A DNA stretch of 50,807 nucleotides, from IMG/VR virus record IMGVR_UViG_3300028592_000019, positions 1-50,807 of that record. One strand, 5' to 3'. The position numbers were made by a program, and so were the translations under genes. The notes beneath the pieces are model-generated. The model did no database searches. It was not told the DNA's origin and saw only the letters and a list, made by a program, of their open reading frames with translations. Position 1 is the stretch's first letter, and the number at the start of each line of letters is the position of its first letter. Of this stretch, positions 1 through 50,807 are shown piece by piece. The DNA is from a virus. Its lineage: Duplodnaviria; Caudoviricetes.

Positions 1-401
1 GCAAAGCGCTGGGCGTGTCCCGCGGCGCCGTGGGCAATTGGGAACTGGACAAGGACATCGGCAAAGACAACCTCCTCGCCATCGCGAAAGAGTGGCGCGT
101 GAGCCTGGATTGGCTGATGAACGGGAAAGGCGACGCGCCGGATCGCGACGACATCCTCGGAACAGAAGTTTTCAAGGACAATGCGCCCAAGGCGTATTCA
201 ACCTTCGATCCCGACGAGGACTGGAAGCCAGAGACAGAGTTTGAGGGCGAGGCGTATACCCGCGAGATGTGGACGCCGCGCCAGCCTGGCGCATTGCCGG
301 AACTGGATCTCAAGGTCGGCGCCGGCGAAGGTTCTGTGGGCGATATCCTCGTGCTCGAGCACAAGGGCCATGCCTACTCTGGCCATCGTATCGTGGACGA
401 A
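1..401. repeat. Left copy of imperfect 401-bp terminal repeat (circular overlap within cI)
   Basis: Matches 50407-50807; first 127 nt identical, then 18 substitutions by manual comparison. Confidence 0.95.
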
Positions 402-731
402 TGGCTCTTCCCCGAGAGCTTCCTGCATTATGCCGGCACAAGCCCGAACCATTCGATCGTTGCCGAAGTGACCGGCGATTCCATGGTTTCGTCCTACCTG
501 CCCGGCGACCGCGTTGTGGTCGACCTGAGCCAAGAGATGAGCGTGGACGGGGTTTACATGTGGAGCGATGGGCATAGCCCGCCGCAGATAAAACGGCTTC
601 AGCGCATCCCCTTCAGCGATCCGCCGCGCGTCGAAATCAGCTCCGACAACAAGGCCTATAAGAGCTTCGAAGCACCTCTAGCCGAGGTCCGCATCTTCGG
701 CCGGATAACCTGGCACCTGGGCCGGAGATAG
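1..731 (+). CDS. cI: CI-like repressor (XRE HTH + S24 peptidase), 5'-truncated here; true start at 50340 across the junction
   Basis: HTH end LGVSRGAVGNWE; S24 motifs VTGDSM (Ser) and IKRL (Lys); AG cleavage-like VGAGEG. Confidence 0.92.
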   Translation, partial: KALGVSRGAVGNWELDKDIGKDNLLAIAKEWRVSLDWLMNGKGDAPDRDDILGTEVFKDNAPKAYSTFDPDEDWKPETEFEGEAYTREMWTPRQPGALPELDLKVGAGEGSVGDILVLEHKGHAYSGHRIVDEWLFPESFLHYAGTSPNHSIVAEVTGDSMVSSYLPGDRVVVDLSQEMSVDGVYMWSDGHSPPQIKRLQRIPFSDPPRVEISSDNKAYKSFEAPLAEVRIFGRITWHLGRR

Positions 732-735
732 TTTC

Positions 736-987
736 GTGAGCGAGAAGCCTACAAAGCTCATCGTTTACCTGGCCTTCGTCCGAGACGAAGAAGGCGAGCT
801 ACAGCCAGCATTTGAGGCCCGTGAAGCTCAATCCGAGAGCGCAGCCAAGCAGCAGGCAGCAATGCTCTGGGGCTCTGGAAAGTATGCTGGTGCCATCGCC
901 TGGTGGCGTTCGGCCGATCTCGTCAACGGAGAGTTCGGGGAACCCGTAATCCTGTTCCAACAGGGCGAAGTGCCCGAAATGGAATAG
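736..987 (+). CDS. Hypothetical protein, repressor operon
   Basis: 83-aa ORF starting 4 nt after the cI stop, same strand. Confidence 0.7.
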   Translation: MSEKPTKLIVYLAFVRDEEGELQPAFEAREAQSESAAKQQAAMLWGSGKYAGAIAWWRSADLVNGEFGEPVILFQQGEVPEME

Positions 988-1006
988 GCTTCGAGGAGAT
1001 CAATCG

Positions 1007-1363
1007 ATGAGAACATTTACCACTCGAAGCGTAACGACAGCGTTTCTGATCATAGCCGCATGTTCGCCTTCTCTGGGCATTGAGGCCGACCAGGTGCGCA
1101 ATTGCTTCAACCTGACGCCCGACCAGTTCTCCATCGATGCGTCGGTGGATCTGGAAATCTCTGTTGCCGCAGGACAGGTGACGTCTGTCGAGGTGACGAG
1201 GTACACCCCCGATACCGAAGAGGGCTATGGGATCGCTCGCGCCGCCTACAGGGCGGCGATGATGTGCGGCCCTTATGTCGGAGAAACCGGCACGTTCTCG
1301 ATCACCCTGCCCGGCAAAACCGCCTCGGAACCCGGCGGGATTCCACTTCCCGGCACACAATAA
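1007..1363 (+). CDS. Exported protein/lipoprotein with TolA C-terminal-like domain
   Basis: RBS GAGGAG; signal peptide with IAAC lipobox-like site; QVRNCFN...ARAAYRAAMMCGPY resembles alphaproteobacterial TolA domain III (CWN...AxRAVxRCAPY). Confidence 0.6.
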   Translation: MRTFTTRSVTTAFLIIAACSPSLGIEADQVRNCFNLTPDQFSIDASVDLEISVAAGQVTSVEVTRYTPDTEEGYGIARAAYRAAMMCGPYVGETGTFSITLPGKTASEPGGIPLPGTQ

Positions 1364-1365
1364 TC

Positions 1366-1608
1366 GCTTCGCCGGCCTATCTATCCACGGCCTCGATGGC
1401 TGTGTGAAGCCTCGCGCGTATTGCCCTATACAGACATCTCAACACGCTAAGAGTTCAGTGGTTATAGAACCTTGAACTCCGTGAAGCGCTGCGCCTAGCG
1501 GCGCGCTTCCTCGATGCCAGTAAGAGGGTGTTTCTATCACCCGTTCGTCGTAGCCGCTTCGCGTCTACTCCTCACTGATCACCCCATTATAGTTACCGCG
1601 TATACGCG
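1366..1608. ncRNA. Candidate structured non-coding RNA
   Basis: Consecutive hairpins 1366-1410, 1451-1479, 1483-1509, 1518-1577; no credible ORF; TATAAT on minus strand at 1586-1591. Confidence 0.35.
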
Positions 1609-1637
1609 TGCGTGAAAGGTTGCGTCAAGCGAAAATT

Positions 1638-1686
1638 GAAAGTGCCGCTTTCTTTTTGCTTGCAGTGTTCTGAAAGTTATGCTTTC
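1638..1686. promoter_or_regulatory. OL-like operators (two 15-bp palindromes) over the early promoter
   Basis: GAAAGTgccGCTTTC at 1638-1652 and GAAAGTtatGCTTTC at 1672-1686; same motif lies between cro and cI. Confidence 0.8.
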
Positions 1687-1753
1687 AATAGCTCCATCAA
1701 CCGAGGACGAAGAAGCGCAAGCCGATCTCCTCGATACCCCGATGGAGACGGCG

Positions 1754-2203
1754 ATGACATACAGCGCGGAACACACGGAAGCTGCCGAAGCCCATCCCGG
1801 CCTGGGCGCTGAATACTTCGCTGCCCGCGATGCCGCTGAGGCATTCCTTTCCCACTGGCAGGAAGAACATGCCGAGAAGCTGGCGACCGAAATCGTCAAA
1901 CCGCTGCTCGATACCATCCAAGAGCGCGTCAACGACGCCTTCCGAGATCACCTGCTCAGCGATGCCGAGCAGAACCTCCAAGGCACGATGCGCCGCATGG
2001 TTGAGGACACCGTGAACGCCCTTATCGGCGGGCATAAGTGGGCCAACCAGAAGTACATCGAAACGCCCTACAGCGACGGCCAGAAGGTCCGCGAAACCCT
2101 CGCCAAACTGCACAGCGACCCGATCAAGGACGGCCGCATTGCCGACCTCGAAAAGGAACTGGCGCGGGTCAAGTCTGACCTTGAGTGGCACCGCGCTCGA
2201 TAA
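1754..2203 (+). CDS. Hypothetical early protein
   Basis: ATG 1754 with GGAG RBS; first gene after OL. Confidence 0.7.
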   Translation: MTYSAEHTEAAEAHPGLGAEYFAARDAAEAFLSHWQEEHAEKLATEIVKPLLDTIQERVNDAFRDHLLSDAEQNLQGTMRRMVEDTVNALIGGHKWANQKYIETPYSDGQKVRETLAKLHSDPIKDGRIADLEKELARVKSDLEWHRAR

Positions 2204-2244
2204 CCCCCCCTCACCCAGTCATTGCCCAACCGGAGCAAGAGACC

Positions 2245-2652
2245 ATGACCACCAACTTCCTGATCCCTATCGAACGCCTTACCTCTGGCAACGAGATCAT
2301 GGTGCCCGACTTCGGCTCTGCCGAGGTCTATGGCGTCGAGTTCGATGGCGAGGGCTATCTGGTCACCTACTGCACCGATGACCGTGCGGGCTGGGATGCA
2401 CTGGACACGCACTACGTCCGCGTCGGTGAAAGCGTGGAATACGCCATAGCCAATTCGCAGCCCCGCTGGATGCGCTCTCGCGCCGCTGTGACGGCCGAGG
2501 AATGGGAAGCGCTGGCCGAGGTCGAGAACAACCGGCGTCTGGTCGAGGATGGCTGTGCCGCAGCCGTAGCCGATGCGCTGGGCGTGTCCAGCGACGAGCG
2601 CCGTGCCGAGTTCTTCGGTGCGTGTGATCGCGCTCTGATGGCCGCGGAGTAA
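2245..2652 (+). CDS. Hypothetical early protein
   Basis: ATG 2245 with GGAG upstream; in operon. Confidence 0.65.
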   Translation: MTTNFLIPIERLTSGNEIMVPDFGSAEVYGVEFDGEGYLVTYCTDDRAGWDALDTHYVRVGESVEYAIANSQPRWMRSRAAVTAEEWEALAEVENNRRLVEDGCAAAVADALGVSSDERRAEFFGACDRALMAAE

Positions 2653-2655
2653 GCC

Positions 2656-2928
2656 ATGAGCAATCCCCTCCGCATTCACGCCAAGGTCCATGGATTTCGA
2701 CAGACGCTCCCAGACGGCGCACGACGCCTCGCTGGTGGCTGGGACGAAGAGCGCTATGGCGGCACGACCGAATACCTGCGCGGCGATGTGGCCGACGAAA
2801 TGCTGGTAGCTCTCCGCTACGTCGAGACCCGCTGTGTTTCCGAAGCCGCCTATCCGCACGCCAGCATCGAAGACCGCAAGATGCGCGACATGGTCGTCGC
2901 TGCCATCTCCAAGGCGGAGGGCAACTGA
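2656..2928 (+). CDS. Hypothetical early protein
   Basis: GGAG RBS; TGATG coupling to next gene. Confidence 0.65.
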   Translation: MSNPLRIHAKVHGFRQTLPDGARRLAGGWDEERYGGTTEYLRGDVADEMLVALRYVETRCVSEAAYPHASIEDRKMRDMVVAAISKAEGN

Positions 2929-3311
2929 TGTTCGACCTCATCACCGTCCTGACCTACTCCCGCTCCCTGCGTCGTGCCTGTGATGCTCGCTCCGCAGACC
3001 ACGACAACGCCGAAGCTGAGGAGGAAGCGCGCGTGGCGCTCCTCCGCATCTCGAACGGCATGGGAGTGACCATCCATCCCGAGCGGCCCGGTCGCTGGAA
3101 TGGCACCGAGCAGTTGGCTCGTGACGTCGAGGCCGCTGCTGTTGCGCTTGCAGCTACCTCCGACGGCTCGTTCCAGCAGGTCGGCGCAATCGCCACGCTA
3201 GCCCTCCGCTTCGGTGCAATCGCTAATCGGCTGGGCTTTGACATCGATCCCGATAGCGACAGCGACGCCCGAGTGGCGGTCGAGGGTCGGACCATGGAGG
3301 CAGCAGAGTGA
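2928..3311 (+). CDS. Hypothetical early protein
   Basis: Translationally coupled at both ends. Confidence 0.65.
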   Translation: MFDLITVLTYSRSLRRACDARSADHDNAEAEEEARVALLRISNGMGVTIHPERPGRWNGTEQLARDVEAAAVALAATSDGSFQQVGAIATLALRFGAIANRLGFDIDPDSDSDARVAVEGRTMEAAE

Positions 3312-4285
3312 AAGCCATCACGATTGAACCAGGCGAAATCATCACCGAGCCCGGCGTCTACGACATGCCGATCGAGTGGTACCATCAGCAATGCTGCGAC
3401 GGCCCGTCAATCAGCTCGAGCGGCATACGCGCGCTGCTGCGGAGCCCGGCTGAATACTGGCGCACTTCGTCGCTCAACCCGAACCGCGTGGAGCAGGACG
3501 ACAAGGAAGCCTTCATCCTCGGTCGCGCGGCCCACCACCTGTTGCTGGGTGAGCGCGACTTTGCCAAGCACTTCGTGATCCGTCCTGAAGAAGCTCCGGA
3601 CGGCCGCGTTTGGAACGGCAACAACAAGAGCTGCATCGAGTGGCTGAAGGCGCAGGCCGACGCCGGCATCACCGTCCTGACGCCAGCCCAGATCGAGAAG
3701 ATCAAGGGCATGGCCGGCCTTCTGCCGTGGCAAAGGGGCATGACCAACTGCGGCCTTGCTAACACCCCGCTCGTCGCCCAAGGCGGCGTACTGTCGGGCG
3801 AGATCGAGCGGTCTCTGATCTTCAAGGTTGGCGATGTCTGGGTGAAGGCCCGTCCTGACGCCATTCCCGGCGACAGCAATGACTTCGCGGACCTCAAGAC
3901 AGTTTCGCCCCGCGGCGTGTCAGGCGTGACGGATCACAGCTTGGCCAACACGGTGCTCGATCACGGCTACCACGTGCAGGGCGCTGTAATTGGCATGGGT
4001 GCAAAGCGCGTCCTCGACCGAAACATGGAAGGCTTTCATCTGGTCTTCGTCGACACGACGAATGTCCACTCAGTCGCGATCAAGACGCTGGACGATGCCG
4101 ACATCGTGCTGGGCGAGCGCTCTACCTTCGCCGCCCTCTCCATCTTCGAACGCTGCCTCTCCACCGGTGTCTGGCCTGGCCCGACGGCTCGTCAGGCCGA
4201 CGCGCAGCGCCTCTCCCTGCCCTCCTACGGTCGCGAAGCAATCGACCGACACCTCGATACCCTTGAAGCGGAGCTTGCCCAGTGA
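3308..4285 (+). CDS. RecE/ExoVIII-like PD-(D/E)XK exonuclease (DUF3799-like)
   Basis: ISSSGI, GRAAH, KARPD, DLKT, YHVQGA motifs; directly upstream of RecT. Confidence 0.88.
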   Translation: MKAITIEPGEIITEPGVYDMPIEWYHQQCCDGPSISSSGIRALLRSPAEYWRTSSLNPNRVEQDDKEAFILGRAAHHLLLGERDFAKHFVIRPEEAPDGRVWNGNNKSCIEWLKAQADAGITVLTPAQIEKIKGMAGLLPWQRGMTNCGLANTPLVAQGGVLSGEIERSLIFKVGDVWVKARPDAIPGDSNDFADLKTVSPRGVSGVTDHSLANTVLDHGYHVQGAVIGMGAKRVLDRNMEGFHLVFVDTTNVHSVAIKTLDDADIVLGERSTFAALSIFERCLSTGVWPGPTARQADAQRLSLPSYGREAIDRHLDTLEAELAQ

Positions 4286-5298
4286 ACCAGTTGGCACCCA
4301 ACAATCAGCAGAGCACGTCGCTGGCTTCGGTCGGCATGGCGCGCGAAGGCAGCGGATCTCGAATCGCGCCGCAGAACCTTGGCGAGGTGGTGAAGTTTGC
4401 CGACCTCATGAGCCGGGCCGATATCGCTCTACCCAAGCACTTGCGCGGTAACCCCGGCGCCTGCATGGCCGTGGCGCTGCAGGCACTCGACTGGCAGATG
4501 AATCCTTTCGCCGTCGCATCGAAGTCCTATTCGGTCAGCGGCATGATCGCCTACGAGGCGCAGCTCATCGCTGCCGTGGTCAACACGCGGTCCGGCATCA
4601 AGGGGCGTCTGCGCTATGAATACGAGGGCGAAGGCGCCAATCTCTTCTGCCGCGTAATCGGTAATCTCGACGATACCGAATGCGTCTATGAGACGCCGAC
4701 AATCGGCAGCATCACGGTTAAGAACTCTCCTCTCTGGAAGTCCGACCCGAAGCAGCAGCTCGGCTATTTCGCCGCGCGCTCCTGGGCACGCCGTCACTGC
4801 CCGGAAGTCATCCTTGGCGTCTATGACCGCGATGAAGCGGAGCAGATCAAGGACGTGACGCCGCCGGCAGGAACGGGGCTTGCTGCGCGATTGCAGAACA
4901 ATGGTGGTGGCTTCAGCGCTCAATCCGTTGAAGGGGCGCTCGGGGAGGCTCAGGAGGCCCAAGACCAGCCATCGAACGCAGACGGTGAAGTGCTGGCGGA
5001 AGTCTCGCCTGCGGACACTGTAGAGGAGCCGCTGGACCCGTCATTCGTCGACTGGAACAGCGCAGACGAAACCGCTGCCGCTCTTAAGATGGGCGTGCTG
5101 CCCGAAGGCTTCTCCACAAATCTCTCAGGCGCACTCGTCATCCCCGACGAGCTGCACGGCAAGAAGGGCGGGCCGCGCGGGCACAGCATCATCGCCGCCA
5201 GCTATGACGAGATCGTCACGGCCTCTGGGGTGGTGGTGAAGAGCAAGGCGCCGAGGGATGACTTCCCCGGTGACCTTCCGACAGAGGGAGACGAATAA
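4282..5298 (+). CDS. recT: RecT-family ssDNA annealing protein
   Basis: ALDWQMNPFAVASKSY, AYEAQL, WKSDPKQQL, WARRHCPEVILGVY. Confidence 0.88.
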   Translation: MNQLAPNNQQSTSLASVGMAREGSGSRIAPQNLGEVVKFADLMSRADIALPKHLRGNPGACMAVALQALDWQMNPFAVASKSYSVSGMIAYEAQLIAAVVNTRSGIKGRLRYEYEGEGANLFCRVIGNLDDTECVYETPTIGSITVKNSPLWKSDPKQQLGYFAARSWARRHCPEVILGVYDRDEAEQIKDVTPPAGTGLAARLQNNGGGFSAQSVEGALGEAQEAQDQPSNADGEVLAEVSPADTVEEPLDPSFVDWNSADETAAALKMGVLPEGFSTNLSGALVIPDELHGKKGGPRGHSIIAASYDEIVTASGVVVKSKAPRDDFPGDLPTEGDE

Positions 5299-6023
5299 TG
5301 GCCCTGATTGCGCGCGTGCTGGACTTCGAAACCACTGGCTTCCCCGAAAACGAAGCCGCCGAAATCATCGAATATGGTTTCGTCGACGTAGACCTGGCTG
5401 GACGCTTCATCATCGATGGCAGCGCCCGGCAGGGCCTGCGCAAGCCAATGGGCGCGATTCCTCCCGAGACATCAGCGGTCCACCACTTCGTGGCCGCTGA
5501 CTTCGAAGACGCGCCGGGGCACGTCGAGATGACGAAGACCTTGGCAGGCGGTCTTGCTGAAGACGACATCTACGTGGCGCACAACGCCGCCTTCGAACAG
5601 CACTTCTATTCGAAGCGGCCGCAGCCTTGGATTTGCACGCTGAAGTGCGCTTATCGGGCATGGCCCGAAGCGCCGGGCCACAACAATCAAACCCTGCGGT
5701 ACTGGTTGGGCCTCGACCTGGACCCAGCGCAAGCAATGCCGCCGCACCGCGCCCTGCCCGACGCCTATGTCACGGCTCACATCTTTCAGCGTCTCCTTGA
5801 GCTTCGCCCTGTCGAGCGGCTGGTCGAGATCAGCAAGGAGCCCGGCTTCTTGCCGCGAATGAATTTCGGCAAGTACCGCGGCAAGAGCTTCAAGGAGGTC
5901 GCGCAGACCGATCGCGGCTACCTGTCGTGGATCGTCGACAAGTCCGACATGGATTCCGACGTGAAGTTCACCGCCAACTGGTGGTTGCGCCGCGGCCCCG
6001 ATGCGTCGGGAGACGCCCAATGA
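5298..6023 (+). CDS. DEDDh 3'-5' exonuclease (ExoX-like, C-terminal FGKY domain)
   Basis: [28 protein letters not shown]. Confidence 0.88.
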
Positions 6024-6496
6024 GCAGCGTGAACAAGGTCATTCTCGTCGGCAACCTCGGGCAAGACCCCGAAGTCCGGAACCTTCCCAGTGGCGGCAAG
6101 GTCGTGAATCTTTCTGTCGCGACCAGCGAACGTTGGAAGGATCGCAATACCGGCGAGCAGCGCGAAAAGACCGAATGGCATCGCGTCGTAATCTTCCAGG
6201 AAGGCGCTGCGAAGTTCGCCGAGCAGTATCTGCGCAAGGGCAGCAAGGTCTATCTCGAAGGCCCGTTGCAGACGCGCAAGTGGCAGGACCAGTCTGGCGC
6301 GGACAGATATTCGACCGAAATCGTCATCCAAGGTTTCGGGCACAGCATCCAGTCGCTCGACCCGCGCGGTGATGACGGCGAACGCCAACCATCTCGCGAC
6401 GCCGGCAGTGGCGGCGGGCAATCCCAAAACGCTGGCGGATATAGCGGCGCTGGCGGTCTCGACGACGACATTCCCTTCAGTCCGCAGGTGGACTGA
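6020..6496 (+). CDS. ssb: Single-stranded DNA-binding protein
   Basis: [22 protein letters not shown], acidic DDDIPF tail. Confidence 0.96.
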
Positions 6497-6499
6497 TCA

Positions 6500-6652
6500 A
6501 TGCTGATCGTCGCCACCACAAACCCGCAGCGCTGCTCACCGGCTGTCGAAATGGGCCTGGCCGTGACAATGGCGCAGGCGAAGGCTCTCCTCGCCCAGCG
6601 ACGCCCTATGGCGAAGGTGCTGCCGAAGATCGTTGTGCGGAGGAAGCGCTGA
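6500..6652 (+). CDS. Small hypothetical protein (50 aa; not in ORF track)
   Basis: MLIVATTNPQRC...; fills gap, stop overlaps next ATG. Confidence 0.5.
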   Translation: MLIVATTNPQRCSPAVEMGLAVTMAQAKALLAQRRPMAKVLPKIVVRRKR

Positions 6653-7095
6653 TGCCGATCCGCCCCGAGAACATGGCCAAGTATCCTGGCGGCTCGATCC
6701 GTTCTCCCGAATGGCTCGCAATCCGCGATCGCATCCGGGCACGCGCCGGGAACTGCTGCGAGGAATGCGGCGTGCAGAACCATGCTCTCGGCGGGCGCGG
6801 AGTGAACGGCGCCTGGCATAAGGCCCTGCCTGTTGGCCAAAAGCTCTTGGGACTGGAATGGCCGAAGCCCGGCGACACCTCAATGTGCGAAGGCGGCCTT
6901 GCCCGACGCATCGTCAAGATCGTCTGCACGGTCGCGCATGTGGACGGCAAGCTTGATGACCACAGCGACGAGAACCTCCGCTTCTGGTGCCAGCTCTGCC
7001 ACAACCGGCACGACGCGCGGAGTCGGCAGGTCAACGCAGCGATCACCCGCCACGAGAAGAACGGCCAACTCGACCTGATTGGGAGGGAAGGATGA
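6652..7095 (+). CDS. HNH-like zinc-binding endonuclease
   Basis: CEECG, TVAHVD, NLRFWCQLCHNRHD. Confidence 0.75.
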   Translation: MPIRPENMAKYPGGSIRSPEWLAIRDRIRARAGNCCEECGVQNHALGGRGVNGAWHKALPVGQKLLGLEWPKPGDTSMCEGGLARRIVKIVCTVAHVDGKLDDHSDENLRFWCQLCHNRHDARSRQVNAAITRHEKNGQLDLIGREG

Positions 7096-7529
7096 TCCGT
7101 TCTCAAAAGGTTATCGACAGCGCACGCGGCGCGCCATGCGCGCTTCGCCTGCCCGGCATCTGCAACAATGATCCGGCCACTACCGTGTGGGCGCATCTCA
7201 ACGGGTTCGGCAAGGGCATGGGCATGAAGACCCATGACATTCTGGGGTTCCCGGCTTGCTCATCATGTCATGCCGCATATGACACCGGGAAAGACCGATC
7301 GAAGTATGTCGGGGATGCGCTCAGGGCACTTTGCGAGACGCTGGTGGGGCTTGTTCTGTCCGGTCTGGTGTCCGTGCCCCAAGACAAGCAAAAGCCCGCC
7401 CATGAGGCTCCGGTAAAACCGAGGAAGCCAAAGGCAGAGCGGGCCAAGATCAATGGCAGCCGCGCATTCCCGCAAGGCCGCAAGATGCAATCCCGCCCGT
7501 TCAGGCAGAAGGAACCTCACAATGGCTAA
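7092..7529 (+). CDS. DUF1364/YbcO-like putative nuclease
   Basis: SARGAPCALRLPGICN, TTVWAH, GMGMKTHD, ACSSCH. Confidence 0.8.
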   Translation: MIRSQKVIDSARGAPCALRLPGICNNDPATTVWAHLNGFGKGMGMKTHDILGFPACSSCHAAYDTGKDRSKYVGDALRALCETLVGLVLSGLVSVPQDKQKPAHEAPVKPRKPKAERAKINGSRAFPQGRKMQSRPFRQKEPHNG

Positions 7530-7977
7530 GGCCAGCATACCCTATGCCAACGCCACCAGCGGCGTAGCGGCTCGAACCGAGATCACCAACATCCTGCGCC
7601 GGTTCGGCTGCAGCAATGTTGGCTTCATGGATGATTACGAGAAGCATGAAGTCCTGCTTGCGTTCTCGCATCGCGGCAACAGCGTCCAGTTGCGCGCATC
7701 GGCCAAAGGCTGGGCCGCGATGTTCCTAAAGGCGGAGCCGTGGAGCCCGCAGCGCCGCTCAACGCGCGCTGAATACGAGCAAGCCGCGCTCGACAAGGGC
7801 CTGATCGCCGTCAACTCGGTCCTGCGGGATTGGGTCAAGGGACAGATCACCGCCGTGGAAACCGGCGTGCTCTCGTTCGCTGGGGTTTTCCTGCCCTACA
7901 TGCTCGCGGCCGATGGCAGGCCGGTTCTCGAACACATCCAAGCGGCGAAGCTGCTGCCGGCGCCAATGGAGCCGTAG
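7522..7977 (+). CDS. Hypothetical protein
   Basis: AAGGA RBS; in operon. Confidence 0.7.
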   Translation: MAKASIPYANATSGVAARTEITNILRRFGCSNVGFMDDYEKHEVLLAFSHRGNSVQLRASAKGWAAMFLKAEPWSPQRRSTRAEYEQAALDKGLIAVNSVLRDWVKGQITAVETGVLSFAGVFLPYMLAADGRPVLEHIQAAKLLPAPMEP

Positions 7978-7978
7978 C

Positions 7979-8215
7979 ATGGACGAGAAAGAAATCATCG
8001 AAGGTATCGTCCAAGAGATCATGGGCCTCCTCGACGAGCTCGCTGAAGAAGAAGACGTCAACGCTGCCCACATGGTCATGGCCGCCCAGGCTGTTGCGGT
8101 GCGCTTGTGCTGGGCGGCTGCCAAAGATCGATCAGAGGTGCGTCAGATGCTTGGCGCGATGATCGACGATTTCGTGACGCAGACGGAACACGGCGGCCCG
8201 ATGGTGACGCAATGA
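7979..8215 (+). CDS. Hypothetical protein
   Basis: GGAG RBS; coupled to xis. Confidence 0.6.
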   Translation: MDEKEIIEGIVQEIMGLLDELAEEEDVNAAHMVMAAQAVAVRLCWAAAKDRSEVRQMLGAMIDDFVTQTEHGGPMVTQ

Positions 8216-8487
8216 GGCTGTCTGCTCCACCAAAGCGCATGTTGAGTAAGGACGAGGCCGCGAGCTATTGCGGCTTCACCTCTACAGCACGCTTCGAATC
8301 CGCCGCCCGACCGCATGTCCCGCCTGTGAATTACGGCAACTGCGTCCGCTATGACCGTGTCCGCCTCGACGAATGGCTAGACACAATGACCCAATCATCG
8401 GCATCTGATGATAGCGACATCATCGGAGCCGCCTTCCGTGCTGGTAAAGATCGTGGGCATAAAGCAATACACCGACCGGCACGGTAA
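8212..8487 (+). CDS. Excisionase-like HTH protein
   Basis: LSKDEAASYCG...RYDRVRLDEWLD; overlaps int start. Confidence 0.7.
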   Translation: MRLSAPPKRMLSKDEAASYCGFTSTARFESAARPHVPPVNYGNCVRYDRVRLDEWLDTMTQSSASDDSDIIGAAFRAGKDRGHKAIHRPAR

Positions 8488-9610
8488 GCTCAGGCGCTAC
8501 TACCGTCGCAAGGGCTGTCCGCAGGTGGCCATCGACCCTAGCCTGACCGGCGCCCAACTGGCTGCCGAAGTCGCCCGCCTCGATGCCCTTTACAAGCCCC
8601 ACGCCATGCGCGCCGGCACGCTCCGAGTGCTGCTCACTGAATACCAAGAGAAGTCAGCCCACTGGAAAGGCCTGCGCGACCGCACGCGGCAGGACTACCA
8701 GCGCGTATTCGACATCATGGGCGACACCCTCAACCATGCCCTGACGCGCTTCACGCCGCCCCTGATCGCCGGCCTGCGCGACGCCGCAGCCGAGGCGCAC
8801 GGCTTCAAGTTCGCCAACCAGATGCTCGTCAGCCTAGGCAAGGTCTTTGCCTTCGGCGTCGAATATGGCCACGTCCAGTCCAATCCCACGGCCGACATCT
8901 CGAATGTGGCCCGACCGGCAGACTTGCCAGATGCGAACCGACCGTGGACGCCTGAGGAAGCCATCAACCTCCTCGCCGCGCCCATCCATCTCGCGGCCCC
9001 GATCGCCATGGCTGCGTATCTGGGCCTACGCGAAGGCGACATCATCAAGATGTCCAAGGGGGCGATCACTGAGCGGCTTTTGAGCCTCACGACGAGCAAG
9101 ACCCGCCGGGCGCTCGAATTGCCCGTCTGTGATGATCTCTGGGCAATCCTGAAGCGCTACAACGCGTGGCGAGAGGCGCTATGGGACGAGCGGCGCCGAA
9201 AGGCGGACGCGAAGAACTCTCGCGAGGATATCCAAGACCTGGTGATGACGATGTTCGTCAACACGCGTGGCAAGGCATGGACCTCGGATGGCTTCAGGAC
9301 TTCATGGGGGAAATGGCGCGACGAAGTTGAGGAGGCCAAGAAGGTCGGCCCCGGCATCACGTTCCATGGCGCGCGGCATGGCGTGGCAACCGTTCTCGCT
9401 GAGTGCGGATATGAGCCGCAGCAGGTGAAGCATCTCTTGGGCCATGGCAGCGAGACCATGACCGAGCATTATCAGCGCCGGGCCAAGCGCCGCGGCATGC
9501 TCAAGGATATGACCGACGCCGTGCAAATGGCCTATCGAAACGCTGGCCAAAGCACTGTTGTCGGGTTAGACACCTTCCCGGTTCGTTCCGCCGAAAACGG
9601 GCAAGGTTAG
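8438..9610 (+). CDS. int: Tyrosine recombinase (integrase)
   Basis: GLREGD (R), FHGARH (HxxR), LGH, TEHY (Tyr); GTG 8438 with GGAG RBS; adjacent to attP. Confidence 0.93.
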   Translation: MLVKIVGIKQYTDRHGKLRRYYRRKGCPQVAIDPSLTGAQLAAEVARLDALYKPHAMRAGTLRVLLTEYQEKSAHWKGLRDRTRQDYQRVFDIMGDTLNHALTRFTPPLIAGLRDAAAEAHGFKFANQMLVSLGKVFAFGVEYGHVQSNPTADISNVARPADLPDANRPWTPEEAINLLAAPIHLAAPIAMAAYLGLREGDIIKMSKGAITERLLSLTTSKTRRALELPVCDDLWAILKRYNAWREALWDERRRKADAKNSREDIQDLVMTMFVNTRGKAWTSDGFRTSWGKWRDEVEEAKKVGPGITFHGARHGVATVLAECGYEPQQVKHLLGHGSETMTEHYQRRAKRRGMLKDMTDAVQMAYRNAGQSTVVGLDTFPVRSAENGQG

Positions 9611-9793
9611 ACGCTCCGGATTTCGGCAGACCCCAACAAAACCGGGATTTGCCCTACTCCTCCAAAACCGAGGGTCGTGGGTTCGAGTCCCCCAGCCCCT
9701 GCCAGGCAATAGTCGTTGATATCGTTGAGCTTCGCTCCGATTTCCCACCAGAACATTCGAGAACGGTTAGACGCCTCCAGCCGGGGGTTAGAC
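9564..9793 (+). repeat. Four GGTTAGAC direct repeats (putative integrase arm sites)
   Basis: At 9564, 9605, 9765 and 9786; two on each side of the att core. Confidence 0.7.
9660..9704 (+). other. attP core = 3' half of tRNA-Trp(CCA)
   Basis: CTCCAAA anticodon loop, GGTTCGAGTCC T-arm, ends GCCA; 5' half absent. Confidence 0.85.
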
Positions 9794-21455: not shown

Positions 21456-22168
21456 CACACACCTCCTGTGGCCAGATTATTCCAATAGTCGACAGCTTCG
21501 ACAAACTCGACCGACGCCGCATCAATTTCGACGTTCGAGAGTGCGAGATCCATTCCGCGATCATCAACCAGACGGCACAGGCACGTCGGGCGATCCGCCT
21601 CAAGCTGGGCATCAACAGGGATGGCTTTTCGGATGGCCGGGAACACCGGCACCTGGAAGGTGTCGTCGTCGACCTGCTGAATGATGGGGCCGGTCTCATA
21701 CAGCGCGTGCTGGTAGCTGAAACGAATGCCGACAGGAGAACTAGCGCTCACCAGTTGGATTGTTATGACCGTAGCCGCGAGCGGGGCAAATGTCGCCATG
21801 CGGACATCGATGGCCCCTTGGCTGTAGCTCGTGCCATCGTCAAAGGTCGTCTCATCGTCGTGCGGTGAATAGACCAAGGGCTCACGATGTCCGGAGGGAT
21901 ACGGCGCGCTGTCGAAAGACCAGGCAGGAACGGTCACAAGTCCCGCCCTGCCCCCCAATTGGGTTCGAATGGCATTCCACGTGCGGCGCATCGCGGGCTT
22001 GTATACGGTCACATCTGACAGCGTAATCCGCCAGAATCCACGGTCGGTGCGAGCCGTCGGTTCGATGCCGCCCAGAGAGCGCCCGCCCGACCGCGTGAAG
22101 GGCACCATCGACGCAGTTGCCTTGGCCGGGCGGAGCAGCTTCGTCGGCCAATGGATGTAGTCTGCCAT
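21455..22168 (-). CDS. Distal tail protein (putative)
   Basis: Directly follows tape measure; coupled. Confidence 0.65.
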   Translation of the reverse strand: MADYIHWPTKLLRPAKATASMVPFTRSGGRSLGGIEPTARTDRGFWRITLSDVTVYKPAMRRTWNAIRTQLGGRAGLVTVPAWSFDSAPYPSGHREPLVYSPHDDETTFDDGTSYSQGAIDVRMATFAPLAATVITIQLVSASSPVGIRFSYQHALYETGPIIQQVDDDTFQVPVFPAIRKAIPVDAQLEADRPTCLCRLVDDRGMDLALSNVEIDAASVEFVEAVDYWNNLATGGV

Positions 22169-24081
22169 CACATGGTCCTATAGTCAGAGCCCGCACGCTG
22201 TTCTTGATACTTAGCAACGGCAGCCGGCGCTGTTTTGTTGGCTTGTGCTACTGCCACCTGAGTACCTGCCGCTGCGGCCGTCTGCGCCTCTTGGCGCGAG
22301 ACCGACTTCACGTATGCCTGCAGCTTGCCCTCATCATCGATCGAGACGCCGACGTTGACATGCATGGAGCCGCCGCCATTGCTGTTCGCTGCAACGCCGA
22401 GCTTCCCATCTGCACCGCGCCGCAGTGGCATGATGGCCTCCGGCCCCGCCTCTCCCATGAGCCCTGCCCCATTGGCCATCGGGAACAGCGTGGGACTGTT
22501 GACGATGCCGCCGCGGGCGAAAGGCTGGACATGACCGCCGCTGAACACGCCGCCGTCTGCAAAGCCAAAGAGCGAGCCTATCATTCCGAAGATACCGCCG
22601 AGCCCGCCCCCGCCACTTCCGCCCATGGAAAAGAGGGCGTCAACCAGGTTGGTCTCGATCTTGTCGATGATCTTGTCCAAGACGCTCATCCCGGCCTGGC
22701 CGAATGCCTCCCAAAAAGAAGCTCCGTCGCTTAATCCCTGCCGGAGATCGGACAGGAACCCCTTGGTGAGGTCCTTGCCAAACTCGAAAGATTCTTTGGC
22801 CTTACGTGCAGCCTCTTCTGCAACGGCCATGGCCTGAGCGAGGGCACCGAGTTCTTCGGTCTGCTGCGGAGTAAGCTTGATATTGTCGTTGGCTGCCTGG
22901 TTGAGCAATTCCTGCTCGTGACGCAGCCGGCCCATCTCGACGGCGGTCATGCCGATCATCTCGATCTCAAGCTCGGATTGATCGATGCGCTGTTGCGCGC
23001 TGCGAACAATGTCTTGATACGCCTCTGCCTGCTTCTGTGCGGCACTGGCTGCCCTCTTCAGCGCATCTTCGTCCGGTGCCGACGCGTTCTTCTGCGCCTG
23101 GCTGGAGACCGCACCAAAGAACTCACCCATGAAGTCACGCTCTTGGAGCGCGCCAACTGTACGGGCATAGGCGCCCCAGCTTTTGTTGTAGTCCTCCATG
23201 GCTGCAGTGCCGCCAAATTCGATCTTGCCAAAGCTCACCGGACCCAGCGCACTGATGACCTCTTGGCCTGCCATCTGGTTGATACCGCCGATCAGCGAAT
23301 TGATGTTTCCGATGACCGAGTTGATGCCGTTGGCAATGGCATCTGCGAAACCTTGCGCAGCGGCCTGCCCCGCGATGATGAAAGCGGCCGGCACTGTGCT
23401 GATGCTGGTCTTGATGTACTCGATCGATCCGACGATGTTTCGGATCATCGCGTTGCCTGCGTCCTTGGTGGCGCCCACGACCCAATCCCAAGCATCAGAG
23501 AACCAACCGCCGATCATGTCAGTGGCAGGCTTGATGAACTGGTAAATTCCGCCCGCGATCACCTGGAAGGTAGCCAGGGCTACGTCCCCGAAGCCAACAG
23601 TCACCTTGGACGTCTCATTGATTTCGTGGGTCATGCCGGCGAAGGCCAAAGACACGGCACCGACGACGGCAGCAACTGGCCAAAACGTCGTCACTAGGCT
23701 CTTGCCGATACCAACCAGGCTATCGATGGCTGGTTTTAGCCCGAACTGCAGCATCTGCGGCACCTGCTGCACTGCGACGATCAGCGGCGACATTCCGGAC
23801 GCTAGCGAGACGCCGATATCGTTGAGCTGATAGATCATATTGGTGCGCACCTGCGTACCCATGCGCATGGCAGCGTTGTTGGCCTGAATAGCGGCAGTAT
23901 GCGCGGCCGTGGCTGCAGTGGCGGCCTTCTGACCGACCGCCTCAACCTGCGAAGCGCCTGCAAGCTGCCGGGCAGCAGCAGAGGCCTGTCCCGCGGCGCC
24001 GGTAAGCTGGTGCAACGAGACCGTGCCCTTTTCGACCTGAGACGAATCCACTGCGAGGCCAAGACGTGCGACGTCGACCAT
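22168..24081 (-). CDS. Tail tape measure protein
   Basis: QLNDIGVSLASG; FADGG/FARGG; GEAGPEAIMPL; Ala-rich helical. Confidence 0.92.
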   Translation of the reverse strand: MVDVARLGLAVDSSQVEKGTVSLHQLTGAAGQASAAARQLAGASQVEAVGQKAATAATAAHTAAIQANNAAMRMGTQVRTNMIYQLNDIGVSLASGMSPLIVAVQQVPQMLQFGLKPAIDSLVGIGKSLVTTFWPVAAVVGAVSLAFAGMTHEINETSKVTVGFGDVALATFQVIAGGIYQFIKPATDMIGGWFSDAWDWVVGATKDAGNAMIRNIVGSIEYIKTSISTVPAAFIIAGQAAAQGFADAIANGINSVIGNINSLIGGINQMAGQEVISALGPVSFGKIEFGGTAAMEDYNKSWGAYARTVGALQERDFMGEFFGAVSSQAQKNASAPDEDALKRAASAAQKQAEAYQDIVRSAQQRIDQSELEIEMIGMTAVEMGRLRHEQELLNQAANDNIKLTPQQTEELGALAQAMAVAEEAARKAKESFEFGKDLTKGFLSDLRQGLSDGASFWEAFGQAGMSVLDKIIDKIETNLVDALFSMGGSGGGGLGGIFGMIGSLFGFADGGVFSGGHVQPFARGGIVNSPTLFPMANGAGLMGEAGPEAIMPLRRGADGKLGVAANSNGGGSMHVNVGVSIDDEGKLQAYVKSVSRQEAQTAAAAGTQVAVAQANKTAPAAVAKYQEQRAGSDYRTM

Positions 24082-48919: not shown

Positions 48920-49356
48920 GACACGACCCAATCACGGATTGCGTCAGCCAGTTTCGAGCGGAGCCTGCGCCCCTCCCGTTCACGGTTGCGCTCAAAATTG
49001 CGGGCACGCTGGGCGCTGATCTTGTGTTGCAGCGACATGGAGCGATTGACGGCAAGATCAGGATCAAGCGCCGAAACCGATGTCCCAGCCTTTTCCCGAG
49101 CCAGATCACTTGCGCTCTTGGCTAGAAACTCCGCCAAGTCCTTCTGCACGGGGTGCTCGGAAGTGTTGGGATCGATCTTGGGCCGCGACGAAAACAGAGT
49201 GGGGACAAAGTCAAAGGTAAGCGGCGCCACCTCTCTCGGGATCGCAGCGGCAGGACCAAGCCCCATTACCGATATGTCAGTTGCGACGGCCTTTGCCATC
49301 GACGGCCCAGCGGCAACAGCGCCGCCCATAAGCCCAAAGAAACTCCGGCGCTTCAT
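48916..49356 (-). CDS. Protein with twin-arginine-like leader
   Basis: MKRRSFFGLMGGAVAAGPSMAKA. Confidence 0.6.
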   Translation of the reverse strand: MKRRSFFGLMGGAVAAGPSMAKAVATDISVMGLGPAAAIPREVAPLTFDFVPTLFSSRPKIDPNTSEHPVQKDLAEFLAKSASDLAREKAGTSVSALDPDLAVNRSMSLQHKISAQRARNFERNREREGRRLRSKLADAIRDWVVS

Positions 49357-49961
49357 GCTGCACCTGCCAGAATGGCATTGGCGTCGGGCTTGTAGAAATC
49401 ACCGTGGCGCTGCGCTGCCACCTGCTGATAGGCTGCGCTTGCCTCCTCAGCGGTATCGAAAGCCCCAAGGTGATGGTGCTCGCCACAGATCGTTATCTGC
49501 GCAATCCACCGCGACCACCGTGCATTCCAGCTCACACCTTTGAACCCACTCTTGTTCGTGGATGGCGCTCTGGAATTGTGAGCGTTCTGCGCCTTCGTCG
49601 CCGGTCGCAGATTGGCGGGCCGATTGTCCGTCACGACCCCATTGATATGGTCCAGGGTCTGGGGGAGATGGGCCATCTCAATGCCATGATGCATCGCGAA
49701 CACCACGCGGTGCGCGGCATACCGGACATCGTTCACGCAAACCTTGAGGTAGCCGCCAGGGCCTATCGCCCCTGCCCTGCGCCCTGCATAGCGCGTCAGC
49801 CAAGTGCTGCACCCGCGAAGGGTGGCGAAGTGCTCACGCGGACGATGGAGCCAAGTTAGAACGCCAGTGTCGCTGTCGAGCGAAAGGCACTCGTGTAGAT
49901 AAGCCAGTGTCGGAAGCGTGCTGGCTGAATGTTCAGACGGAATAACTGACAATTCGGACAT
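49353..49961 (-). CDS. HNH-AP2 homing-type endonuclease
   Basis: AHRVVF, DHING..DNRPANLR, SGFKGVSW, LGAFDTAEEA. Confidence 0.9.
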   Translation of the reverse strand: MSELSVIPSEHSASTLPTLAYLHECLSLDSDTGVLTWLHRPREHFATLRGCSTWLTRYAGRRAGAIGPGGYLKVCVNDVRYAAHRVVFAMHHGIEMAHLPQTLDHINGVVTDNRPANLRPATKAQNAHNSRAPSTNKSGFKGVSWNARWSRWIAQITICGEHHHLGAFDTAEEASAAYQQVAAQRHGDFYKPDANAILAGAA

Positions 49962-50030: not shown

Positions 50031-50255
50031 TTAGCTGGCCACGGCCATGAGGGGCGGAGGCGCTGTCGCCTCGCCGTAGATGTCGGGCCGCAGGTCATGG
50101 CGCGAGACGCCAGTGACGGCCTCGACCGCCAGCACTCGCCCCACCGGGCACACTTCCCACTGAGAAATCGCCTGAGACGTGATGTTCCCAAGCGCCTTGG
50201 CTAGCTTGGTAGCGCCGCCGGCCTTCTCGATTGCTGTCTTCAGTGCGTTTTCCAT
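50031..50255 (-). CDS. cro: Cro/YdaS-like repressor
   Basis: AGGATKLAKAL..ITSQAISQW..LRPDIYG; divergent from cI. Confidence 0.9.
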   Translation of the reverse strand: MENALKTAIEKAGGATKLAKALGNITSQAISQWEVCPVGRVLAVEAVTGVSRHDLRPDIYGEATAPPPLMAVAS

Positions 50256-50264
50256 GACTGCATT

Positions 50265-50324
50265 GAAAGCACAGCTTTCCGTTTGATGCAAGCGAAACTT
50301 TCGATGATTGAAAGCTTAGATTTC
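50265..50324. promoter_or_regulatory. OR-like operator triplet
   Basis: GAAAGCacaGCTTTC 50265-50279; GCAAGCgaaACTTTC 50288-50302; GAAAGCttaGATTTC 50310-50324. Confidence 0.82.
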
Positions 50325-50339
50325 GGCAATCTCTGCGCC

Positions 50340-50807
50340 ATGGATACCATTGCTGCCAGAATCAAGTTTGTCCGGAAGAGCGCCGGCCTCTCCCAAGAAG
50401 CCTTTGGCAAAGCGCTGGGCGTGTCCCGCGGCGCCGTGGGCAATTGGGAACTGGACAAGGACATCGGCAAAGACAACCTCCTCGCCATCGCGAAAGAGTG
50501 GCGCGTGAGCCTGGATTGGCTGATGAACGGGAAGGGCGAAGCGCCGGATCGCGACGACATCCTCGGAACTGAAGTCTTCAAGGACAATGCGCCGAAGGCG
50601 TATTCCACCTTCGACCCTGACGAGGAATGGAAGCCTGAGACAGAGTTTGAGGGCGAAGCTTATACCCGCGAGATGTGGACGCCGCGCCAGCCCGGCGCAC
50701 TGCCCGAACTGGATCTCAAGGTCGGTGCCGGCGAAGGTTCTGTGGGCGATATCCTGGTGCTCGAGCACAAGGGCCATGCCTACTCTGGCCATCTTATCGT
50801 GGACGAA
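50340..50807 (+). CDS. cI: CI-like repressor 5' part (second allele; runs off the end)
   Basis: MDTIAARIKFVRKSAGLSQEAFGKALGVSRGAVGNWE; open to the end of the window. Confidence 0.92.
   Translation, partial: MDTIAARIKFVRKSAGLSQEAFGKALGVSRGAVGNWELDKDIGKDNLLAIAKEWRVSLDWLMNGKGEAPDRDDILGTEVFKDNAPKAYSTFDPDEEWKPETEFEGEAYTREMWTPRQPGALPELDLKVGAGEGSVGDILVLEHKGHAYSGHLIVDE
50407..50807. repeat. Right copy of imperfect 401-bp terminal repeat
   Basis: Matches 1-401. Confidence 0.95.

Follow-up and report, generated by a model that had tools for sequence, protein, structure and literature searches.

A stand-alone TolA domain III-like protein encoded in the repressor operon of a temperate siphophage: a candidate prophage exclusion gene

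This report concerns a small gene in the immunity region of a tailed phage. The stretch of DNA analysed, here called the window, is the whole of the virus record IMGVR_UViG_3300028592_000019 (50,807 nt), which has an estimated completeness of 92%. At positions 1007..1363 of its plus strand lies a gene for a protein of 118 amino acids (aa), recognized from the list of open reading frames (ORFs), a profile, a structure model, and a tree as an exported, stand-alone protein similar to domain III of TolA (TolA-III). The ATG of this ORF is preceded 8 nt upstream by a GAGGAG motif at 993-998. The n-region of the protein, as read from the sequence, contains two arginines, and the hydrophobic stretch behind it ends in the lipobox I-A-A-C. 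Signal peptide and lipobox together make up residues 1-19, closing with L-I-I-A-A-C, and Cys19 is encoded at 1061-1063. Bacterial lipoboxes conform to the consensus [LVI][ASTVI][GAS]C at the end of the signal peptide, and the TolA-like protein fits this consensus, as does a relative encoded on the metagenomic contig L014. The protein carries an export signal and is here probably a lipoprotein. Its TolA-like domain spans approximately residues 26-102 (about 80 residues) and is followed by a conserved tail that ends in I-P-L-P-G-T-Q. Two cysteines lie within the domain, C33 (1103-1105) and C87 (1265-1267), and their columns are the sole invariant ones in a 50-sequence alignment of the family. 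A preliminary description of the locus had proposed a signal peptide with an IAAC lipobox and a domain with paired cysteines; Cys19, C33, and C87 of the 118-aa ORF bear this out.

The window is rich in GC and contains many long spurious ORFs. The contig L014, which is 93% identical to window positions 859-1748, carries a copy of the gene that differs from it in 17 synonymous and seven non-synonymous codons. The excess of synonymous differences indicates that the ORF is a gene under purifying selection and not a chance reading frame. The architecture of its product was also compared with that of TolA. The protein has neither the N-terminal membrane helix nor the long helical domain II, as had been proposed, and its domain begins at about residue 26 behind a cleavable signal peptide. 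Lacking both anchor and stalk, it cannot couple to the TolQR motor.

At E ≤ 1, Pfam and NCBIfam returned no TolA (PF06519), TonB_C (PF03544), or TonB_2 (PF13103) match for the window protein, a scan of the virus record with TIGR02794 (tolA_full) gave no match, and a sequence search of solved chains with the protein alone gave none. A word-indexed search found three relatives with 50-53% identity, and a profile of these four sequences, run against 1.84 billion representatives, retrieved 60 proteins at E ≤ 1e-3. Altogether 63 proteins (60 + 3) were collected, 54 of up to 160 aa and nine longer. The four-sequence profile matched TolA proteins of 380-396 aa at their C-termini, with E-values from 1.3e-7 to 1.4e-4; these four long matches, which align through the C-terminus only, possess an N-terminal membrane helix and a long middle part rich in Pro, Ala, and Lys. 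All six long matches that were scanned hit NCBIfam tolA_full, two of them (67.5 and 66.8 bits) above its cut-off of 59.45 bits and one at 59.4. When 50 of the small proteins were aligned with five alphaproteobacterial TolA proteins by hhalign, the probability was 98.9% and the E-value 1.7e-17, over 70 columns with 34% identity. The cysteine pair and a C-x-P-Y motif are common to the small proteins and to the alphaproteobacterial TolA proteins.

The predicted fold agrees with this assignment. An AlphaFold2 model built from the 50-row alignment reached a predicted local distance difference test (pLDDT) score of 85.1; with four sequences only, the score was 55.3 and the model too poor for use. 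In the VIA-align comparison the top three matches of the former are TolA-III structures: 1lr0 (Z 9.8, 99 residues aligned, root-mean-square deviation 3.3), 6s3w (Z 9.3), and 4g7x_B (Z 9.3). C-terminal domains of TonB come next, with Z 8.9 to 7.0. The top 24 rows are all C-terminal domains of TolA, TonB, FusB, or HasB, and the first unrelated row appears at rank 25 with Z 4.3. The first 24 rows listed by Foldseek likewise are C-terminal domains of TonB, TolA, FusB, or HasB, the best at E 2.8e-3. Thus the likeness to alphaproteobacterial TolA-III that had been put forward holds in the profile matches to TolA C-termini, in the hhalign alignment, and in the structural comparison. It is real homology, and the window protein is almost certainly an exported stand-alone paralogue of TolA-III. 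A complex prediction for the mature protein (residues 20-118, 50-row alignment) and a stand-in TolB, TOLB_RHIME, scored 0.01 against a mark of 0.32, which is uninformative either way. One source names a close relative of the protein, P0002, a 'predicted deacylase'. This name is probably a mis-annotation, because the match of the family profile to the D-tyrosyl-tRNA deacylase chain 1j7g_A (E 0.33) is at chance level.

Around the window protein there are approximately 50 related clusters of small exported proteins, which share the signal peptide, the two invariant cysteines, and the C-x-P-Y motif. After the last strand they continue with a variable linker and a conserved tail that is absent from full-length TolA. 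Among the 54 small proteins, 15 have a tail of the P-x-P-G-x-Q type, to which the window protein belongs, 13 have D-P-F, nine have the I-T-L-P type, and 17 have others. Tail type tracks the tree (65 rows, 105 columns), many inner forks of which are unresolved or weak; the D-P-F clade has a support of 99/98, and the window protein falls into a starred subclade of eight rows. The hhalign alignment to TolA ends just past C-x-P-Y, before the last strand, and we take this to mean that the C-terminal element of TolA has been replaced by a family-specific tail. In the model the last two blocks, which form the tail, have mean pLDDT values of 72 and 80. As they are not floppy, there is a hint that the tail may dock on the domain.

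The genome encodes an integrase, a tail fibre, a tape-measure protein, a head morphogenesis protein, a portal, and a large terminase, and further a primase-helicase, a methyltransferase, and an exonuclease VIII-like protein. The carrier is a temperate siphophage of a soil Hyphomicrobiales-type host. Its terminase has its nearest named relatives in Hyphomicrobiales: Pelagibacterium comes first at 84%, with Ahrensia, Hyphomicrobium, Alsobacter, and others behind it. By their labels, the sequencing runs that contain the locus are soil, rhizosphere, plant, fertilizer, or aquatic metagenomes; X1 and X2, the two best and both from soil, are the only ones to contain roughly half of the sampled words or more. 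The record overlaps itself at its ends, positions 1-401 being 95.5% identical to 50407-50807 with 18 mismatches and no gaps. The genome is therefore circular (or permuted), with two close variants joined in the assembly. This end repeat splits the cI gene at position 1.

The cI-like gene begins at 50340. Its 5' part (50340..50807, plus strand) encodes a complete helix-turn-helix domain (HTH_3 positions 1-55 of 55, E 1.2e-10), and its 3' part (3..731, plus strand) encodes the end of that domain and an S24 self-cleaving peptidase, with matches to Peptidase_S24 (E 4.3e-11), Phage_CI_repr, and phrog_4 (E 2.8e-32), the PHROG family labelled transcriptional repressor. Divergent from cI lies a cro-like gene of 72 aa (50040..50255, minus strand) whose matches to Pfam YdaS_toxin (55.5 bits) and P22_Cro (34.6 bits) are both above the cut-offs. 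Between the two genes the palindrome TGAAAG-N4-GCTTTC occurs twice, at 50264-50279 and 50309-50324, forming an OR-like operator pair. On the other side, two copies of the same palindrome form an OL-like pair at 1637-1652 and 1671-1686, the first just ahead of the next operon and the second across its start (ATG of orf174 at 1679). This 16-bp palindrome has four sites in 50.8 kb, two pairs bracketing the immunity region and none elsewhere; over both strands there were six matches against 0.30 expected, and none of 100 shuffles reached six. Downstream of cI, orf83 (736..987, plus strand) is the second gene of the operon. It has no signal peptide and belongs to no family in Pfam, NCBIfam, or PHROGs, its leads in the ESM Atlas are all below 0.9, and it is kept in L014 and in run contigs, even in a variant without the TolA-like gene. 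The gaps in the cI-orf83-TolA-like unit, all on one strand, are 4 and 19 nt. That the gene would be the third of a cI operon, as first described, is thus confirmed, with cI ending at 731, orf83 at 736-987, the gene starting at 1007, and the whole lying between the operator clusters.

In lambda, the map reads from a leftward cro across OR to cI and two passenger genes, then OL/PL and onward to recombination genes, int, and att. In the window, cro is read away from the cI-orf83-TolA-like unit on one side, and the early operon leads away on the other. Since the same operator-like palindrome stands on both sides of the unit, the TolA-like gene occupies the position of lambda rexAB, and the layout mirrors that of lambda. 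The early operon (1679..9610, plus strand) contains small genes without assignment, an exonuclease VIII-like gene (3308-4285; phrog_412, E 1e-50), ORFs that lay outside the family scans, and the integrase gene (8408-9610; phrog_1, the integrase family of PHROGs, E 1.3e-35). Directly after the integrase gene follows a 46-nt core of the phage attachment site attP (9660..9705, plus strand), which shares 97.8% identity with the tRNA-Trp attachment site annotated for Paracoccus phage vB_PsuS_Psul1; no whole tRNA is present in the window.

The synteny of this operon extends to close relatives. A run contig of 2400 nt over window positions 1-1713, about 90% identical, retains the order cI, orf83, and TolA-like gene. 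In record 10 of run X2 (window 351-1048), cI and orf83 are shared and the third gene departs from the window version as soon as the signal peptide has begun, with an ordinary, non-lipobox cleavage site, so that the passenger gene at this locus either evolves faster than its neighbours or has been swapped. A 159-nt contig (record 3 of run X11; a single short contig of depth 3.3) joins the stop of orf83 directly to window position 1409, so that window 988-1408, with the TolA-like gene, is absent. As L014 and other contigs keep the gene, it behaves as a cassette.

More distant relatives occupy another site. When IMG/VR was scanned with two D-P-F-type subsets, 14 loci emerged on 13 contigs, several of which are near-copies, so that they represent roughly seven lineages. 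On all 13 viral contigs the small gene is on the strand opposite to the tail genes, its start facing the start of an ORF of 700-890 aa, which is cut by the contig end in three of the 13 loci. All five facing ORFs that were scanned are tape-measure proteins, with three best-matching PHROG families among them, and tail assembly chaperones lie on the other side. The preliminary description asked whether homologues sit next to cI; run contigs keep the order cI, orf83, and TolA-like gene, and the 13 viral relatives are all at the tape-measure site instead. Counting the window and the 13 viral loci, 14 of 14 gene contexts seen are phage. Both placements are typical of genes transcribed from a repressed prophage, on the same strand as cI in the window and opposite to the tail genes in each of the 13 relatives. 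Pattern scans of public contigs depend on exact peptide words, which makes them insensitive. With this limit, the closest subfamily gave no relatives in viral or genome contigs, two other subfamilies gave none in viral contigs, and the D-P-F-tail subfamily gave one 31-residue match in representative genome contigs, in a metagenome-assembled genome (MAG), which the family profile did not confirm. In 301 genomes of the class of this MAG no relative was found, a result that is uninformative, as the class is unknown and no positive control was recovered. A tblastn search of GenBank phages and PLSDB plasmids likewise gave no relative of the TolA-like protein.

Two side observations concern the tape-measure site. 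The tape-measure protein of the window (22168-24081, minus strand) and four of the five scanned ones (from L003, L006, L007, and L008) match phrog_8892, mainly in their C-terminal parts; the phages with the small gene may share a tape-measure type, a comparison in which the frequency of the phrog_8892 type elsewhere lacks a control. Moreover, on two contigs a second plus-strand gene stands behind the TolA-like gene (L005 6474-7013 and L009 6419-6958). It encodes a protein of 179 aa with a lipoprotein-type signal peptide and is possibly a second moron in the same slot.

Taken as a whole, the gene is likely a prophage-expressed accessory gene. Its expression in the lysogen is suggested, by analogy, by its position in the immunity region and by the placement of its relatives at the moron site of HK97 gene 15. 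Whether the protein acts at entry is, in our estimate, an even question, and that it does so by mimicry of TolA-III is a somewhat weaker proposition. Our preferred reading, a tentative one to which we give slightly less than an even chance, is that the protein is a lysogen-made, motor-uncoupled TolA-III competitor or decoy acting at the entry step. On that account, the prophage would make the protein during lysogeny, and its periplasmic domain would offer a strand-pairing (β-augmentation) surface of the TolA/TonB type without energy coupling. The domain would compete for, or capture, a ligand that the energized TolA (or TonB) has to receive from an invading phage or bacteriocin, and entry would be blocked, resulting in superinfection exclusion or bacteriocin tolerance. 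TolB, the phage protein g3p, and colicins A and N are described as binding TolAIII by strand pairing (PMC7391070; PMC4339652), and the former paper also describes how the N-terminus of TolB displaces the C-terminal element of TolA when it pairs with the sheet. The leakage of cells that contain a signal-sequence fusion of E. coli TolAIII (PMC6195910) serves as a further precedent. In the window protein, the family-specific tail that stands in place of this displaceable element may cap the binding groove, sparing host Tol-Pal, and may keep the domain from titrating host TolB. Such sparing would matter because tol-pal is essential in Caulobacter (PMC7391070).

One narrower form of this proposal, which we consider unlikely, names as the target an incoming tape-measure or tail-tip protein of Hyphomicrobiales siphophages, with TolA serving as a periplasmic co-receptor for injection as it does for filamentous phages. 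The resident phage would then exclude its relatives by means of a secreted, uncoupled TolA tip, the tail of which prevents poisoning of Tol-Pal, and the fact that all 13 viral relatives lie next to the tape-measure gene would reflect a functional linkage, as for llp in T5, where llp adjoins the receptor-binding gene.

Several observations weigh against an entry block by TolA-III mimicry. On its own, the window protein falls into none of the families of Pfam, NCBIfam, or PHROGs. Foldseek gave no match for its model at E ≤ 0.001, and the E-values from Foldseek are weak. A lipobox is present in only one of the 54 small family proteins, being restricted to the window type and its close relative on L014; the others have ordinary signal peptides. 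In the tree, a branch with support 95/87 parts 52 tailed small proteins, the window protein included, from 13 rows that contain all six full-length TolA domains, and judging from this phylogeny the family is long diverged from TolA. Because the alignment to TolA stops before the last strand, conservation of the TolA ligand site is only conjectural. We know of no tailed phage or bacteriocin of these hosts that needs TolA. No RNA run contains the locus (window positions 1-3000); two runs bear a metatranscriptomic label, but they are probably DNA and uninformative on expression. The essentiality of Tol-Pal in Caulobacter (PMC7391070) implies that a true TolB competitor could be costly to an alphaproteobacterial lysogen. 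Finally, part of the family is the uncharacterized Pfam family PF27683, members of which may lie outside prophages.

The relation to PF27683 (UCP034077, Pfam 38.1) bears on a different explanation, namely that the gene is a lysogenic-conversion factor that raises host fitness apart from entry, e.g., through stress tolerance or host association, by doing what chromosomal proteins of the UCP034077 type do. In the ESM Atlas, 22 of the 30 nearest clusters carry PF27683, and the clusters that contain TolA-family proteins carry it in 31-59% of their members. In the precomputed Pfam annotation, the window protein and its nearest relatives have no entry and the D/N-P-F-tailed relatives P0194-P0196 have PF27683.1, and a PF27683-type relative is found at the tail-module phage site on contig L016. 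A literature search returned no paper naming UCP034077. It is also true that many morons serve the host otherwise than by exclusion (PMC3594210). However, all 14 visible contexts are phage, and both positions are classic sites of exclusion genes, although other roles are still compatible with them. We consider this explanation to have little probability.

The nearness of the fold to TonB suggests a variant in which the protein mimics the C-terminal domain of TonB. The free domain would pair with TonB boxes on the TonB-dependent transporters of the outer membrane, uncouple them from TonB, and thereby exclude phages or bacteriocins that need an energized receptor. In structure, the protein is nearly as near to the TonB domains as to TolA-III. 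When solved sequences were searched with the family profile, 14 of 17 rows were TonB (12) or TolA (2), only two rows fell below E 0.01, and the best match was TonB 7zc8_B at E 0.0037. Five of 50 family members weakly hit Pfam TonB_C (best E 6.4e-4), one hit TonB_2, and one hit TolA; one family cluster, from isolates named Ochrobactrum or Brucella, bears automatic 'TonB' names in UniRef. Nevertheless, the sequence homology to alphaproteobacterial TolA (E 1.7e-17) is far stronger, the cysteine pair and C-x-P-Y are held in common with TolA, and TolA-III provides the top three structural matches. A block of TonB would presumably also starve the lysogen of iron. A TonB mimic is therefore improbable in our view.

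It is equally doubtful that the protein works as a modulator of Tol-Pal, binding TolB or another Tol partner to loosen the outer membrane or to raise vesicle formation (for release, vesicle decoys, or envelope remodelling) with no direct capture of phage parts. A fusion of E. coli TolAIII to a signal sequence makes cells leaky and is used to release periplasmic proteins (PMC6195910, which cites Levengood-Freyermuth 1993 and Wan & Baneyx 1998), and the natural ligand of TolA-III is the TolB N-terminus (PMC7391070), which together with the TolA-III homology and fold would suit a modulator. On the other hand, Tol-Pal is essential in at least one alphaproteobacterium (PMC7391070), so that constitutive interference from a repressor operon should be costly; the ligand-gated C-terminal element of TolA is replaced by another tail, and the family is long diverged from TolA. 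The weakest explanation, a dead remnant of a captured host tolA or a mis-called ORF, could draw on the many long spurious ORFs of the GC-rich window and on the lack of a family match for the window protein, yet it is very improbable given the 17 synonymous against seven non-synonymous differences, the signal peptide and the two invariant cysteines common to some 50 related clusters, a confident fold prediction, and the recurrence of gene length and position in many phages. A role in the virion or in lysis was rejected because the protein has a signal peptide, its gene lies in the immunity region, and the relatives are placed on the opposite strand.

In comparison with known proteins, the window protein resembles TolA-III in sequence (34% over 70 columns), cysteine pair, C-x-P-Y, and fold (Z 9.8 to 1lr0). 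In contrast to TolA, it has a signal peptide and lipobox of its own, no N-terminal helix, no domain II, and a linker with a conserved tail. Its gene lies outside a tolQ-tolR-tolA-tolB-pal locus, in a phage immunity region, and it belongs to a separate clade (95/87). The protein is homologous to TolA-III, yet it falls outside TolA by architecture, locus, thresholds, and tree.

Lambda rexA and rexB are co-transcribed with cI, and Rex acts from the inner membrane or the cytoplasm by abortive infection. The window gene is similarly downstream of cI, inside the immunity region, and before the leftward early promoter and operators, whereas the proteins are unrelated and the window protein is predicted to be periplasmic. 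HK97 gene 15 was the first moron to be described; the prophage expresses it, and its product prevents injection of the genome (PMC3594210). Relatives of the window gene occupy the gene 15 slot between the tail assembly chaperone and tape-measure genes, and both products are small envelope proteins that are diverged copies of a host protein, gp15 of YebO (PMC3594210). However, there is no relation in sequence or fold; gp15 is an inner-membrane protein and the window protein a predicted periplasmic protein or lipoprotein with a TolA-type domain, the window gene is in the repressor operon and not in the tail operon, and exclusion has been demonstrated for gp15, while here it is a proposal. Llp of T5, Cor of phi80 and N15, and Ltp of TP-J34 are also small exported proteins or lipoproteins that a resident phage makes and whose point of action is the receptor or the injection step (PMC9586334; PMC3952083; PMC3594210). 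Llp and Cor differ in that they inactivate the outer-membrane receptor FhuA, Ltp is from a Gram-positive phage, and none of them has a TolA/TonB-type domain. PF27683 is carried by most of the nearest Atlas clusters and by the D/N-P-F-tailed relatives, but the field is empty for the window protein, and the family has no function attached to it.

The gene is probably a prophage envelope moron for exclusion. No account of a TolA or TonB domain encoded on its own by a phage turned up in the literature search, outside which supplementary tables lay. A 'TolA protein' is annotated in one phage paper, among the auxiliary genes and with no analysis (PMC10520572). A 2025 paper on the evolution of TolA and TonB (PMC12204202), in the text open to a term search, uses 'phage' only in passing (in a list of motor functions and in a reference) and 'signal peptide' only in its reference list, and does not contain 'standalone' or 'stand-alone'. 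Among the known entry-step prophage protectors Cor, Llp, gp15, SieA, and Ltp, none copies the tip of a host force transducer. If the preferred reading is true, mimicry of the TolA/TonB docking domain without its motor would be a new principle of exclusion, and it would point to Tol- or Ton-dependent entry of tailed phages or bacteriocins in soil- and plant-associated Alphaproteobacteria, routes that are essentially unmapped. The protein would further offer a first functional lead for the uncharacterized family UCP034077 and a natural means of uncoupling Tol-Pal or Ton in bacteria that depend on these systems for life. Were it only an envelope fitness factor, it would still be cargo that phages carry repeatedly, at two classic moron sites.

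Some further features surround the gene. Rfam gave no match in window positions 1-2400, and a scan of the same interval for sigma-70 promoters and terminators found no promoter-like site and no plus-strand terminator. Behind the TolA-like gene, at 1483..1509, is an imperfect inverted repeat with 12-nt arms and no T run behind it. The non-coding stretch 1480-1670 is nearly identical to positions 625-815 of L014, while the flanking genes differ by about 7%. This conserved stretch includes the inverted repeat and, near 1597-1608, the palindrome CGCGTATACGCG, with the operators further on. On the other side of the immunity region, two genes downstream of the cro-like gene, a gene for an HNH endonuclease (49353-49961, minus strand) matches phrog_99 with an E-value of 2.3e-56.

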